Shown in pieces: positions 13,823 to 22,508 of a DNA stretch of 64,000 nt. Location: assembly GCA_019057475.1 (NCBI GenBank), contig DXJO01000010.1:384001-448000 (forward strand), in the 5' to 3' direction. Both the position numbers and the translations under genes were made by a program. The notes beneath the pieces are model-generated. The model was not told the DNA's origin, did not search any database, and saw nothing but the letters and a program-made list of their open reading frames with translations. Each line of letters starts with the position of its first letter. The first letter of the stretch is position 1. This DNA is from Candidatus Thorarchaeota archaeon (GTDB lineage Archaea; Asgardarchaeota; Thorarchaeia; Thorarchaeales; Thorarchaeaceae).

Positions 13823-16800
13823 ATGATTTTCTCAATTATCAAACCACTTGTGAAGTACGCCATAATGTTGATTGTGGTCGTGTTCGGAGCAATGATCTGT
13901 GCCCTCATTGCCACGATTCCCATACGACTGAACCCTGCGATGCCCAGCCTGCTGCGAACTCTTGGCTTCTGGATCTCGGTATTGTGCTTTGGAGTGGGAA
14001 TGCTTGATTTGGTCTTCCGACGCAGCATGCAAGTCATGAAGCAGTCGGGCAAGATTGGAGTCGCAGTGCCTTTCGCGGTCCTCATCATAAGCATCCCGAT
14101 AACCCTAATCGAGGTTGCACTGAGGATTGTCGACCCCATGACACTGGCATGCATGGTGGTCATGGCTGTCGTATCCATCGTGTTCTTGTACGACGACATC
14201 GTAGCTCGAGTCAACAAGCTCCGAGGTATGACTTCAGGCGAATCAGGCACTTACTCGAAGCCAAGCATATCTTCGAGGTCACGTCCTCTGAGCGCAAACG
14301 CCCTTGCTAAGCAGTCAGACAACATTCTGGTGGGGGCATACGAGGTTGTAGAATGTCCTGTGGACTATATCGGTGGTGCTTCCACAGCGGACAGACGAGA
14401 GCTCTACGAACCATTCCACACACTTGTCCGGGGTATGGCAGGCAGCAAAGCACCGGTAGGTCTACGGTTAGAGCGCATTGAAGGTCGGACGCGGGAGTTC
14501 TTCCTCACAGTTGGTCTGACAGCAGCCGGCCTTACCCACAACATGGACCTGCTTGAGAGGATTCTTGCAGGGAATCTGCCAAGATTCAGGTTCAAGCGTC
14601 ATAACCGGTTCACTTGCCCAACTGCGAAGATTGGCATGACTGGCGCCTTGGCCCATCTCACCGGCGAGCCCCTGAGTGTTACAGACACACGGCAGAGTGT
14701 AGACCCCCTTACAGTCCTTGCAGAGTCGTTCCAGCATCATGAGGATGGCATCATGCAGGTCTTTGTGACTCCTGCCCCTCAAGGAGTTGTCAGGTCATTG
14801 ACACGAGCCTGGAAGGGTAGGCAGTACCAGAACAAGACGCAACAAGCAACGAAGACGGTCTCCAAGAAGAGCAGTGGGCTGTTCTCAGGCGGTTCTGAGG
14901 AGTCTGTAACGACGGTCAATGTGGCCGCTGCAAGTGAAGCTGACCGACTTGATCGAGAGGTCCAGCGATACAGAGCGGAGAACGCATGCGAGCTGGAGGC
15001 AATAGTCGGGTACTGGGATGACTCACGCAGAGACGCAACGCAGGAGGCTCACACCCTGATGGAAATTCTGAGGGGTGCAGTGGTCCCTGCAGATGTTGAA
15101 CGAGACCTGAAAATCACAACTAGCAGGAGGAGCGAGGACTTTCAGAGGCTCGTAGATGGAAAGCCTGTTGGTATCGCAACGCTTCTCCTACCAGAAGAGG
15201 CCTCAATGTTCCTTACACTGCCCCGTTGTGACCTAGGGATTGTCACTTCTAGACGTGAGTCCTTCTCTACAGCCACGACTCCTGTTCCCGCCCCACTGGA
15301 GGATGCGATAAGCCCCGGTGAAGGCTCTGTGACAGCATCTCAGAAATCCGGACGAAGCAGATACGAAATGAAACAGCCATATCCCAATAGGAGGGGCGGG
15401 GTTATTCTCGGGAATCCAATTCGGAAGAGCGGGGACGCCATAGCTGGCAAGTTCATATGGTTCCGCCATCAGCAGTTCGAGTCACACATTGGCATATACG
15501 GAAACACACGGTCCGGAAAGACAACAACCGCTCTCTCTGTTGCGGCTCAGGCGATCAACTGTGGAATACGGACATTGATGCTCATTCCTCGGAAGGGCGG
15601 AGACTGGGTAAGGCTGTCGTACATGAAGCCTGAGATCTGGGTCTTCACAGCAGGAAATCAAGGCGGCACACAGTTTCGCAAGAACATCTTCATACCTCCC
15701 ACTGGAGTACAGCTCACCAGGTGGATAGCGGAGCTAGTCAAGATATTCTCCGCGTGGCTCCCCAACGACCGCGTGATGAGTATGCACTTCGATGACATCT
15801 TTCATACAATATACCGCAACTGTGGCTGGAACCAAGATACGAACGTGCAGGGAAGACCCCCTCTGCTGAAGGACTTCTGGGATGCAGTGGAGGAGGTCTG
15901 CATCGACTTCCAGTACAGTGACGAGCTCAAGAGCAACTTCTACGGTGCACTGTACAGCCGTATGTCCAGCATGCTGCGGAACCACGGCATAGTGGACATG
16001 TACAATACAACTGAAGGCATCACTTGGGAGGAGCTGGTGGAGAATGATGTCATCATCATCATGGAGGACCTTCCAGAGGCTGACATGGCATTGCTCACGA
16101 GCATACTGCTGGCAGGGGTTCACCTCTACAAGATAGCACACCCGACCGAGATGATAACGAATCTCGTGGTGCTGGAAGAGGCCAGCTATCTGCTCAAGAG
16201 GTCTACTGGACATGATATCTATGGTCCTGACGTACACGAGGTGATGTCACGGGGCATTGTGGACATGTTCACCACGGGTGGTGGTAACGGTCTTGGCTGC
16301 ATGGTCGTTGAACAGCTGCCCGTGCGTCTTGTGAAGGATGTGTTCAAACTGATCGTCAATGTCATAGTCCATGCCATGGCCGATGAGGATGAGAGAAGGC
16401 TGGTCGGCGGTCACATAGGCGTTGATGAGAAGCAGTTGGACCACCTCAGACAGATGCGGAGGGGTGAGACCGTTGTTCATCTGGAGGGGCAGGGCGTGCC
16501 ACAGAGTGTCAAGATCATGCCCTTGGATATCTTTCTTGAAGCCCCCCTTCCGAAGAAGCCATTGACCAACGAGATGATTCGCGATGTGATGAGACCTATT
16601 TACGAGAAGCATCCGAACCTCGCATCAGTTGAGGAGCTGCCCAGTGAGATCATTGCGCGCATCGAACGAGCGAAACCCAGTGCAGAGGAGTCAACAAAGG
16701 AAGTACAGAGAGAACGCGTGCACCTGTCCATCGAGCGGATACTGGACCCTGATGCCAAGACGCGCCTCAGCCATCTTGTTGAGAACCATAGGTTCTCGAA

Positions 16801-17020
16801 ACGTTACTACGAGTCACTGAGAAAGGCTGCCAGTAGTGATTCTACCTCTTTTGTAGACCTCATGGTCACTGCGGTGAAGAAGGCAAGTCCTGAAGGTGCT
16901 GATCTGTCAACCCTGGCAGAGTGGTTCATCCCTCATGTCAGGGACGTACTCGGTGCTCCTGACGACGGAACACTGTTCAGTGACCTTACTGCGCGTGTGA
17001 GAGAGAAGGTCACCGCCTAA
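13823..17020 (+). CDS. Membrane-anchored HerA/FtsK-superfamily ATPase (DUF87 / VirB4-VirD4-like)
   Basis: 1065 aa with 3-4 N-terminal TM helices; HIGIYGNTRSGKT (Walker A), LVVLEEA (Walker B), VVEQLP (conserved Gln), LRQMRRGE-type motif. Confidence 0.85.
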   Translation: MIFSIIKPLVKYAIMLIVVVFGAMICALIATIPIRLNPAMPSLLRTLGFWISVLCFGVGMLDLVFRRSMQVMKQSGKIGVAVPFAVLIISIPITLIEVALRIVDPMTLACMVVMAVVSIVFLYDDIVARVNKLRGMTSGESGTYSKPSISSRSRPLSANALAKQSDNILVGAYEVVECPVDYIGGASTADRRELYEPFHTLVRGMAGSKAPVGLRLERIEGRTREFFLTVGLTAAGLTHNMDLLERILAGNLPRFRFKRHNRFTCPTAKIGMTGALAHLTGEPLSVTDTRQSVDPLTVLAESFQHHEDGIMQVFVTPAPQGVVRSLTRAWKGRQYQNKTQQATKTVSKKSSGLFSGGSEESVTTVNVAAASEADRLDREVQRYRAENACELEAIVGYWDDSRRDATQEAHTLMEILRGAVVPADVERDLKITTSRRSEDFQRLVDGKPVGIATLLLPEEASMFLTLPRCDLGIVTSRRESFSTATTPVPAPLEDAISPGEGSVTASQKSGRSRYEMKQPYPNRRGGVILGNPIRKSGDAIAGKFIWFRHQQFESHIGIYGNTRSGKTTTALSVAAQAINCGIRTLMLIPRKGGDWVRLSYMKPEIWVFTAGNQGGTQFRKNIFIPPTGVQLTRWIAELVKIFSAWLPNDRVMSMHFDDIFHTIYRNCGWNQDTNVQGRPPLLKDFWDAVEEVCIDFQYSDELKSNFYGALYSRMSSMLRNHGIVDMYNTTEGITWEELVENDVIIIMEDLPEADMALLTSILLAGVHLYKIAHPTEMITNLVVLEEASYLLKRSTGHDIYGPDVHEVMSRGIVDMFTTGGGNGLGCMVVEQLPVRLVKDVFKLIVNVIVHAMADEDERRLVGGHIGVDEKQLDHLRQMRRGETVVHLEGQGVPQSVKIMPLDIFLEAPLPKKPLTNEMIRDVMRPIYEKHPNLASVEELPSEIIARIERAKPSAEESTKEVQRERVHLSIERILDPDAKTRLSHLVENHRFSKRYYESLRKAASSDSTSFVDLMVTAVKKASPEGADLSTLAEWFIPHVRDVLGAPDDGTLFSDLTARVREKVTA

Positions 17021-17034
17021 CAGAGGGACTGACC

Positions 17035-21408: not shown

Positions 21409-21450
21409 TGTTTGATAGGTTGATAAGTTATCCTCTTGATGATTTCCAAT

Positions 21451-22508
21451 GCACGTTCATCTTTCCGCCGAAGCCATCCATGCGCCTTATCACTGACACA
21501 TTCAAATTCTGTTCGCAGAGCATGCCGCTTTGGAATACGATCTCCATATCCGGTTATCATATCCGAGAGGCCGGCTCGACGGCCGTGCAGGAAATCGCTT
21601 TCACGCTAGCCAACGGGGTTGCCTACGTTGACGCCGCTGTCAAGGTCGGTCTCGACGTAGATTCATTCGCATCTCGATTATCTTTCTTCTTTGGTTCGCA
21701 TAGTGATTTCTTTGAAGAGATTGCCAAGTTTCGGGCAGCTCGAAGGCTTTGGGCTAGGATAATGCGCAATAGGTTCGGCGCAAAGGACGACAACTCTTGC
21801 AGAATGAGGTTTCATACTCAAACAGCTGGTTGTACGTTGACCGCGCAACAGCCGGATAACAACGTTGTGCGTGTGACTCTTCAAGCCCTGCAGGGCGTGT
21901 TGGGTGGAACACAGTCGCGCCACACGAACTCTAGGGATGAAGCATTGTCGCTCCCGACGGAGCAGTCAGTTCAAATCGCACTTAGGACTCAGCAGATAAT
22001 CGCTTACGAGACCGGAGTGGGTGACACAATCGACCCGCTAGCCGGCTCCTACTTCATTGAACACTTGACTGATGAAGTAGAGAAGAGAGCAATGGAGTAC
22101 ATTACGAAAATTGATGATATGGGCGGCGCCCCTGCTGCAATCGAGAAGGGATTCATCCAAAGAGAAATCAACGACAGTGCCTATAAGTTCCAACAGGCCG
22201 TTGATAATAACACAAGAGTCGTAGTGGGACTCAATAGGTTCACCGTGGAGGAGGAGCAACAGTTCGACTATCTGAGAGTGGACCCAGCAGCAGAAGCAGA
22301 GCAGATTCGGCGATTGCAAGAGATGAAAGAGGGACGTGACCAAGCGGCTGCTGAAAAGACGCTTGAAGCGATGAGGTCTGCTGCAGAAAGTAATAGTAAC
22401 CTAATGCCCCTGATTCTTGATGCTGCCAAGGCTTACGCGACTCTAGGCGAGATGTGTGGAGTGTTGCGTGAGGTCTTCGGTGAATACAGAGCGCCAGACA
22501 TATTGTAG
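21451..22508 (+). pseudogene. mcmA: Methylmalonyl-CoA mutase large (substrate-binding) subunit, 5'-truncated (about 200 N-terminal residues missing)
   Basis: TFIFPP…WNTISISGYHIREAG…RFHTQTAG…AQQP…EVFGEY. The upstream GTIQNDILKE…RG segment is absent. An in-frame GTG at 21408 would add about 14 unrelated residues. Confidence 0.85.

Follow-up and report, generated by a model that had tools for sequence, protein, structure and literature searches.

Two genes beside a displaced mutase half in a Thorarchaeota chromosome: probable core of an integrase-free homing element

In fungal mitochondria, free-standing homing-endonuclease open reading frames (ORFs) form hybrid genes, as in atp6 of Allomyces macrogynus and in atp6, atp9, cox2 and nad3 of Glomus (PMC3630166). 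Here we describe a two-gene unit with a closely similar arrangement in the chromosome of a Candidatus Thorarchaeota archaeon. The stretch analysed, referred to as the window, comprises 64,000 nucleotides of contig C42 (DXJO01000010.1) of the genome G000; its congeners are G001–G006, and L-numbers denote the loci and contigs compared. The unit encodes an ATPase and a LAGLIDADG nuclease and adjoins a displaced half of the methylmalonyl-CoA mutase gene, mcmA. As in the fungal hybrid genes, a host 5′ part is joined in frame to a foreign C-terminal part, accompanied by a LAGLIDADG ORF and the displaced native C-terminus. The native C-terminus groups with close relatives and the replacement stands apart, and integrase, intron and intein are all absent. 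The endonuclease ORF lies between the replacement and the displaced C-terminus both in a compact form (L282) and in the 45-kb form of G000. The archaeal case differs from the fungal ORFs in its chromosomal setting, its 350-codon replacement and its 1457-residue nuclease with an acidic region and a helix–turn–helix (HTH) array. It also differs in the coupling to a membrane ATPase, the swapping of nuclease domains between paralogs, the targeting of tRNA genes and many enzyme genes, and a cargo of tens of kilobases. By analogy, the Thorarchaeota element may work like the fungal ORFs, every feature of which that is testable here it displays, and its mobility would likewise be driven by the endonuclease. 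We found this arrangement, an insertion with repair of the gene by a divergent half, described only in fungal mitochondria; a search for Thorarchaeota or Asgard together with LAGLIDADG returned no paper on the family from a literature in which most subscription journals lie outside coverage.

The ATPase recalls a different system. ICEth1 of Thermus thermophilus carries a transjugation module of the TdtA ATPase, Tth111II and NurA, and TdtA works with a sequence-specific nuclease in DNA donation (PMC5365140). Both systems encode a HerA/FtsK-type membrane-associated motor together with a sequence-specific nuclease (in ICEth1 a proposed relaxase substitute), and both share anchoring at tRNA 3′ ends and a capacity, putative in the present case, to move chromosomal DNA; the recombinase, 47-bp repeats, NurA, methylase and frequent-cutting restriction enzyme of ICEth1 fall outside the conserved unit here. 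Membrane-bound ATPases of the HerA–FtsK superfamily also include CedB and CedD of the Ced/Ted systems of Sulfolobales (PMC11823120) and VirB4/VirD4. Unlike Ced/Ted, the present ATPase is patchily distributed, occurs in multiple copies and is almost always accompanied by a nuclease gene, and the CedD profile matches all 24 aligned members only weakly (34 bits against a family cut-off of 600). HeimM2 of Ca. Heimdallarchaeum is an Asgard mobile element with a homing-endonuclease homologue proposed for site-specific integration beside a tRNA (PMC8813620); as described, it differs in its 8-kb size and leucine-rich-repeat gene, with no ATPase partner or replacement half described. Nezha, DUF4297-HerA, TdpAB and HerA–NurA differ in that our ATPase is membrane-anchored and its partner is of the LAGLIDADG or HNH type, not Sir2, DUF4297, TdpB or NurA. 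The nuclease domain has the fold and paired acids of archaeal intein and intron endonucleases (TliVMA, PI-PfuI, I-Tsp061I and I-DmoI) and of WhiA. Unlike the intein and intron enzymes, it has no splicing domain and no in-frame insertion, is 12–18% identical to them, and shows large domain insertions and an extra preceding HTH-like domain; unlike WhiA, which is catalytically dead, it keeps the catalytic acids. Elements that replace the gene part they displace are also known among prophages in icd and SXT in prfC, which use an integrase, and among synthetic cleave-and-rescue drives, which are engineered and RNA-guided and make no insertion at the cut. Features that define inteins, integrase-bearing integrative and conjugative elements, Ced and the known HerA defence systems were not found at this locus.

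Precise insertion into mcmA and rescue by a foreign half

The two genes probably form the core and right end of a site-specific, integrase-free cut-and-rescue homing element. A sequence-only reading of this locus had offered, as one of two proposals, an integrase-free homing or transfer cassette at a conserved housekeeping sequence, and this proposal gains a codon-precise insertion, empty alleles in five congeners and a replacement 3′ half. The last lies 24 kb outside the window and was therefore invisible to that reading. The features of the locus are listed below in window coordinates.

1–11763, unstranded: right part of a 33-kb block (C42:362635-395763) inside the 45-kb insertion; elsewhere on the chromosome in G001, G004 and G005.
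11764–13295, minus strand: multi-copy 230-residue ORF and a 242-residue secreted/zinc-ribbon gene, cargo between the block and the ATPase.
13333–13822, unstranded: non-coding leader accompanying the ATPase; from 13333 onward it is homologous to the TFS-site copies of G004 and G001.
13823–17020, plus strand: membrane-anchored VirB4/HerA/CedD-like ATPase, 1065 residues; 92–95% identical to the ATPase at another site in G004 and G001.
15500–15523, plus strand: Walker A; its G, G and K are invariant among 24 aligned homologues.
16163–16180, plus strand: Walker B (LVVLEE).
17035–21408, plus strand: partner protein, 1457 residues, with an acidic N-terminus, an HTH array and a C-terminal two-motif LAGLIDADG domain (type CA).
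17326–19075, plus strand: acidic/HTH middle region, the module-swap zone; 85–90% nucleotide identity in paralogs with other ATPases and other C-termini.
18592–19860, plus strand: HTH modules at about residues 521–560, 650–677 (weak), 810–846 and 902–938.
20554–21384, plus strand: LAGLIDADG domain (model residues 158–434); VVSDG motif at 20596 and IPEDG motif at 20884.
21409–21450, unstranded: 42-bp spacer that forms the right end of the element; also present in G005 and in the third lineage, L283.
21451–22508, plus strand: native 3′ half of mcmA, displaced, running from codon ~206; its frame remains open and it clusters with the intact alleles of congeners.
22521–22931, plus strand: methylmalonyl-CoA epimerase-like (glyoxalase family) gene, host flank; directly 3′ of intact mcmA in congeners.

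The host 5′ half of mcmA, which the sequence-only reading had proposed to locate, lies at C42:359554, 24 kb before the window. It reads in frame, across a left junction near C42:360170, into the foreign 3′ half, giving a complete and open hybrid mcmA of 557 residues (C42:359554-361227 in G000) that is found in G000, G005 and L282. Mutase homology had been described as starting mid-gene 42 bp past the stop of the second gene, and it does so, at 21451. The accompanying claim of a break in the mutase gene stands for the displaced native 3′ half but not for the host gene, which is not left broken since the complete hybrid lies upstream of the window. A simple knock-out of mcmA is ruled out by the same in-frame hybrid.

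The replacement half (350 codons) is 57% identical to the displaced half. Compared with intact alleles in 60-bp windows, the hybrid shows 83–97% nucleotide identity before the switch, then 58–77%, then lower values, and the switch point falls within ~6 bp of the start of the remnant at 21451, leaving a short shared core of ~6 bp. In a tree of 40 mutase 3′ halves, the remnant groups with the intact alleles of the congeners and the replacement forms a deep clade of its own, both clades having full support; the second mutase of the genus is rejected by this tree as the source of the replacement. The second mutase carries RQFAG and KEYMAQ at the positions of RQYSG and KEYVAR in the broken mutase, which is thus the Tyr/Arg-type enzyme of the genome, and the hybrid retains these residues. 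The gene of the second mutase is found at G000:C42:342381-344084 (L002) beside a cobalamin adenosyltransferase gene, and by known specificity residues it is presumably of the isobutyryl-CoA mutase type.

The element is present in some congeners and absent from others. Uninterrupted alleles had been suggested as a check, and five congeners (G001, G002, G003, G004 and G006) have an intact mcmA; G004 is collinear with G000 on both flanks, which defines an insertion of ~45.3 kb in G000. The compact form, on one ENA contig (L282), reads meaB, hybrid mcmA, ~1.2 kb, nuclease, remnant and epimerase, with ~5.8 kb inserted. Its nuclease is N-terminally truncated and without an ATPase, and no integrase gene is found in the compact element, which is near-identical to G005 and so does not represent an independent lineage. 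When four intact congener alleles are compared in 30-nt windows, divergence peaks at the insertion site (0.356; median 0.089), and the empty allele of the TFS gene in G005 carries clustered changes at its own insertion site; both observations fit escape from cleavage. The remnant in G000 alone has an L-to-R change in the TQSLHTN motif. Its ratio of non-synonymous to synonymous substitution rates (dN/dS) is 0.08–0.15, against 0.08–0.10 for intact alleles, and an in-frame GTG is present at 21408. A functional split mutase that includes the remnant is unlikely, because a recent insertion would leave the same pattern and a full enzyme is already provided by the hybrid. Other broken mutases, in G083 and G033, were set aside, as their assemblies are fragmentary and the nuclease is not adjacent.

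The junction between nuclease and mutase is shared by congener G005, with 93% nucleotide identity across it, and by the third lineage L283, in which the spacer has diverged. An unbranched 10.2-kb contig in the probable source run covers 12500–22551 with zero differences, and contigs of three other studies bridge the junction. The source sample also contains an intact mcmA allele of a relative. A misassembly at ~21450, which the sequence-only reading had named as fatal to its proposal, is ruled out by these observations.

The membrane-anchored ATPase and its nuclease partner

The two ORFs, 13823–17020 (1065 residues) and 17035–21408 (1457 residues), are separated by 14 bp, as expected of the operon first described. 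The ATPase has hydrophobic segments at about residues 1–36, 47–65 and 77–130 (three to four N-terminal membrane segments), with Walker A (GNTRSGKT) at 15500 and Walker B (LVVLEE) at 16163. The best Foldseek match of its model (predicted local distance difference test, pLDDT, 84.6) is TrwK/VirB4 with an E value of 9e-17 and most of the length aligned, and the motor domain matches DndH (Z 30.0), VirB4 (Z 28.7) and HerA (Z 26.0). The original assignment as a membrane-anchored HerA/VirB4-type ATPase with intact Walker motifs is thereby upheld. Judged by sequence, the solved structures closest to it are HerA proteins from defence complexes; PADLOC returned weak, motor-domain-only matches for the ATPase and zero for the partner. 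Of 43 family members whose genomes were sampled, 24 have the ATPase; a few other families of the phylum have it as well, and multiple copies are common. No conserved gene stands upstream of it at the 45 loci compared, where relaxase families were not searched for, and conserved CedA-like or pilin neighbours are likewise missing from these loci, no genome-wide search for those having been made. Its fold and membrane anchor tentatively suggest a membrane DNA pump or coupling protein that would move the element between cells, a role to which we give slightly less than an even chance. Among the possible roles of the ATPase, cell-to-cell transfer is favoured because of the membrane anchor, the likeness to VirB4 and the precedent of TdtA in Thermus.

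The partner contains 27–39 Asp or Glu per 100 residues over residues 1–600, in keeping with the very acidic stretch noted before. Three of the four HTH modules claimed from the sequence have Pfam support (residues 521–551, 798–844 and 904–927), and the fourth (residues 650–677) is weak: matched to a profile of the other three, it gives an E value of 0.16. The acidic N-terminus most likely serves as a docking or export handle, judging from its composition, because its acidity is strong in copies linked to an ATPase and usually lower in copies that stand alone.

The C-terminal 441 residues, modelled from an alignment of 34 sequences, adopt an intact two-motif LAGLIDADG fold (pLDDT 90.8), and the top 22 structural matches are all LAGLIDADG-fold proteins. 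The best match is the TliVMA intein endonuclease (Z 18.3, r.m.s.d. 2.6, 193 residues aligned), followed by PI-PfuI (Z 17.2) and I-Tsp061I (Z 17.1). The structural comparison, on which the LAGLIDADG assignment had been made to depend, therefore agrees with it. Both blocks have their catalytic-position Asp, in VVSDG at 20596 and IPEDG at 20884, as first read; both acids are kept in 149 of 150 representatives differing by >50%, and Asp175 is invariant across the 34 sequences. Relative to G005, dN/dS is 0.20–0.34 for the partner and 0.20 for the LAGLIDADG domain of G000. An active nuclease is the simplest reading of the model and these substitution patterns. Pfam does not recognize the CA domain of this protein, and two of the 34 members match LAGLIDADG_3 weakly. 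The absence of Hint/intein motifs noted from the sequence extends to the whole genome, in which the intein-splicing domain (PF14890) was not found; an intein is excluded by this absence and by the ORF stop 42 bp before the host remnant.

Partners, targets and cargo across the family

Throughout the family, CA denotes the LAGLIDADG type of this partner and CB a second LAGLIDADG type. At 45 ATPase loci, the next gene is CA in 29, CB in five, HNH in three and a large acidic gene with an unknown or cut-off end in five, and three loci have none; the ATPase is hence followed by a recognisable nuclease partner at 37 of the 45, so that the two genes do co-occur elsewhere, a point on which the sequence-only reading had staked its proposal. 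Related N-terminal parts carry CA, CB, HNH and unknown ends. The family comprises 932 clusters at 50% identity with E values up to 0.001, and 257 below 1e-30.

Some partners stand out by their ends. The HNH-ended ones (L041:10644-12497 in G034, L053:144-3074 in G032 and L275:833-3601 in G010) include one with eight NUMOD3 repeats and two that abut a tRNA, as the LAGLIDADG versions do. Acidic N-termini are joined to large C-termini matching neither LAGLIDADG type nor HNH at L043:4476-10169 (G004), L264:4455-9542 (G095) and L277:7907-11167 (G020); that of G004, at a break in porA, may represent a further nuclease family. In three short ORFs (L107:12867-13271, L108:5291-5695 and L203:3764-5134), the N-terminal motif of the ATPase is joined to its C-terminal helices or to the nuclease, and their composition marks these ORFs as apparent internal deletion derivatives of the two-gene unit.

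Modules are exchanged between paralogs. The ATPase of G000 and the first 680 codons of its partner are 91–95% identical to the unit at the TFS site of G004 and G001, where the partner is CB-ended, and at the TFS site of G000 the CB end alone remains. The homology of the partner to the G004 copy stops at 19075. In G005 and L283, the same CA end and mcmA remnant follow a different ATPase (38% identical), which G004 has at porA. These comparisons show an exchange of ATPases, N-termini and nuclease domains that passes through the shared middle region, 17326–19075, a repeat that is unbranched in the sample of G000.

The association with conserved genes is repeated at several loci. In a deacetylase-like gene, the native 3′ end (90%) follows the nuclease and a 67%-identical replacement precedes it. 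TFS has new C-terminal codons beside a CB nuclease, with four empty alleles available, and in porA the break falls at a conserved motif and a divergent copy lies on the opposite side. In other genera, duplicated 3′ pieces of argF and sufS surround the nuclease. A tRNA-Ala gene in G000 carries a ~12-kb element that is absent in G001, G003 and G006, and this paralogous element has a 48-bp repeat of 88–90% identity that resembles an att site. In G006, a tRNA remnant is found a few bases past the nuclease stop. None of the eight PF00589 matches, the mark of a tyrosine recombinase, is on the element-bearing G000 contigs C42, C21 and C18, serine recombinases not having been searched for. A search of JGI metagenomes for the junction pattern did not find it.

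A convergent tRNA sequence lies within 300 nt of the unit end at 14 of 64 loci, compared with 25 of 2421 ORFs genome-wide (1.0%) and 3% of other ORFs at the same loci. These loci cannot be counted as independent, since a convergent CA gene occupies tRNA-Asn in 15 of 27 genomes, and the 14 are a lower bound, since Rfam and ARAGORN miss most multi-intron tRNAs. The tRNA-Asn genes (L214–L240, 27 genomes) have one to four inserts in the D arm, anticodon arm, variable region or T loop, which differ even between congeners, and standard tRNA finders miss most of the multi-insert genes. Protection of tRNA-Asn by its introns was considered and set aside: a T-loop intron is present in 11 of 15 nuclease-adjacent copies and in eight of 12 others, with no association. 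Short hairpin insertions of 31–35 nt break the frame at conserved motifs of three housekeeping genes in or next to nuclease units, namely porA (G004, L043:~19000-19035), hutU (G008, L045 ~14290) and ahcY (G008, L117 ~11745-11780), the L045 and L117 positions being oriented ones. By sequence, these look like bulge–helix–bulge mRNA introns. L284 has an ahcY without an insert beside the nuclease.

The 33-kb block within the G000 insertion contains DNA-repair-like genes. Congeners hold the block elsewhere, and its native site in G000 keeps a short remnant only. The block end is 73–81% identical to congeners, against 80–93% for the native-site remnant. The block may therefore be cargo from a related lineage, since the inserted copy is somewhat more divergent than expected and a native remnant stays. 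It includes second copies of RadA-, XPD-, Hel308- and FEN1-like genes that are 26–36% identical to the other copies in the genome (L138), and it encodes a 2608-residue surface protein with immunoglobulin-like repeats; its native site is largely deleted in G000, G003 and G006. Two unrelated ORF families of ~230 residues (window 11764–12456 on the minus strand and G000:C42:361746-362441) flank the block. Neither family has a Pfam match; each is represented by about five genomic copies, many of them close to contig ends, and both may be small mobile elements. A 160–320-bp repeat resembling a miniature inverted-repeat transposable element (L100:~15130-15450) is found at more than 30 sites across G000, frequently at the ends of contigs. 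Farther along the window, 11 kb from the remnant, carboxyltransferase, pyruvate-carboxyltransferase-like and biotin-carrier genes follow in a row (33232–36915, plus strand; identified from their N-termini), and an ORF of 3638 residues at 38352–49268 (plus strand), with a signal-like N-terminus and in a lower-GC stretch (0.43–0.48), probably encodes a surface protein.

Mechanism, rival explanations and meaning

In the cut-and-rescue element as we picture it, the LAGLIDADG domain, aided by the HTH array, would cut the empty mcmA allele at codons ~205–208. We infer that host repair then copies the element in, leaving the end state seen here: the divergent 350-codon mcmA 3′ half that forms the left end of the element continues the host 5′ half in frame, and the 3′ end of the nuclease gene comes to adjoin the displaced native 3′ half. 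The hybrid restores the enzyme and alters the target, and the filled allele is presumably no longer cut because of that change. Paralogs swap modules through the middle region and might thereby be retargeted, and ATPase-less derivatives persist. As the weakest step, suggested by fold and anchor, the membrane ATPase might move the element between cells, sometimes with flanking chromosomal cargo, and so let the nuclease meet empty alleles.

Several observations weigh against this explanation. Many nuclease genes have no ATPase, and the compact mcmA element is one of them, so the ATPase is dispensable for keeping an insertion. Many loci show no detectable duplicated gene piece within the DNA fetched, and conserved genes for a channel or pilins were not detected next to the ATPase at the 45 loci. 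Integrases elsewhere in the genome could act in trans. The insertion site is a naturally variable, tolerant loop across the mutase family. Between G000 and G005, dS is 0.12–0.15 in element parts and 0.29–0.37 in host parts, and independent insertion in the two species is only suggested by this difference, because six of 31 background genes have equally low dS. The unbranched source contig starts inside the repeated ORF near 12307, so the read-based check of the cassette stops short of its join to the 33-kb block. Neither cleavage or excision nor a circle or transfer was observed.

The main rival, which we judge unlikely, is that the pair is a polymorphic nuclease-toxin system: the ATPase would export the partner into neighbours, the nuclease would harm cells with an uncut target, and either the small downstream protein c2 or an altered target would confer immunity, the hybrid genes then being a means of resistance instead of a trace of homing. 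The other proposal of the sequence-only reading, a secretion ATPase with a polymorphic nuclease cargo, was of this kind. It gains partial support in that a conserved ATPase precedes interchangeable ends swapped among paralogs (29 CA, five CB and three HNH at the 45 loci) and a gene for a possible inhibitor follows some of them, c2 standing directly behind the CA gene in 19 of 21 cases and forming a tandem pair once. The G007 nuclease is also predicted to bind its cognate c2: the modelled complex scores 0.88, compared with 0.68 for the best of three controls, its runs agree in at least 96% of contacts with a partner pLDDT of 88, and the interface includes both catalytic aspartates. The mark used for complexes is reached by 58 of 80 solved complexes and two of 110 mismatched pairs, and this pass is marginal because a control of c2 with an unrelated protein scored 0.68; c2 has no Pfam or Atlas match of value. 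However, this locus has no c2 and none was found elsewhere in the genome, an inhibitor would also fit a homing element, and export of a toxin leaves the codon-precise junctions at the nuclease end unexplained. The swapped domains, moreover, are all of homing-endonuclease types (LAGLIDADG and NUMOD3-HNH), which are typically rare cutters.

An anti-virus or anti-plasmid module of HerA and nuclease, carried as a passenger in tRNA- or gene-anchored islands that integrases move in trans, would account for the HerA proteins of defence complexes being the best solved-structure matches, for the patchy distribution (24 of 43 genomes), for neighbours that in part resemble defence cargo and for the att-like 48-bp repeat of the tRNA-Ala element. 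We consider it improbable, as PADLOC matched the motor domain only and weakly, the ATPase is membrane-anchored with an N-terminal part that also aligns with VirB4, and the targets are many unrelated genes, with a shared core of ~6 bp and a 350-codon divergent replacement at mcmA; the compact element, too, holds little beyond the nuclease and the replacement half. No more probable is a homing element whose ATPase works intracellularly, tethered to the membrane as a translocase, to hold or resect the cut ends or to promote strand invasion, the spread of the element being left to host DNA exchange. HerA-type motors do work with nucleases in break processing (HerA–NurA), and no conserved transfer genes adjoin the ATPase, but the ATPase resembles VirB4 over its full length and has three to four membrane segments at its N-terminus, which points to membrane transport, and the arrival of DNA from other lineages is evident from the foreign replacement half and from the more divergent copy of the 33-kb block. 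Finally, a misassembled junction, or an unrelated deletion that set a mutase pseudogene beside the operon, can be almost entirely discounted. The shared middle region is a repeat prone to mis-joining, and the two G005 contigs, on the one hand, and L282, on the other, pair its flanks differently; yet the 10.2-kb unbranched contig, the bridging contigs of three studies, the junction common to three lineages and the agreement of the hybrid switch point with the remnant start all oppose an artefact, which is already refuted for the nuclease–remnant junction.

A bolder form of the cut-and-rescue reading, which we hold to be doubtful, is a self-transmissible class of archaeal elements and a natural cleave-and-rescue drive, in which the VirB4-like motor delivers the nuclease or the element DNA to neighbours. 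If this were true, the nuclease would cut a conserved host gene, and cells would survive by taking up a recoded or intron-protected copy together with tens of kilobases of cargo; the swappable nuclease domains would allow the family to retarget new genes, and the conflict could help to explain hypervariable tRNA introns and short hairpin insertions in protein genes.

For the preferred cut-and-rescue homing element, the finding would mean a route of site-specific insertion into conserved genes of a prokaryotic chromosome that is free of integrase, intron and intein. New at this locus is a metabolic enzyme rescued with codon precision by 350 replacement codons, for which the empty, the filled and the compact allele are all known. 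Cleavage is directly testable, since the target is defined and its empty and filled alleles are both in hand, and the family is a possible source of new rare-cutting nucleases because it is large and its targets are readable from the junctions. Chimeric housekeeping genes, here the Tyr/Arg-type mutase, can mislead phylogenies. The element is also a candidate vehicle for DNA movement between cells of Asgard archaea.

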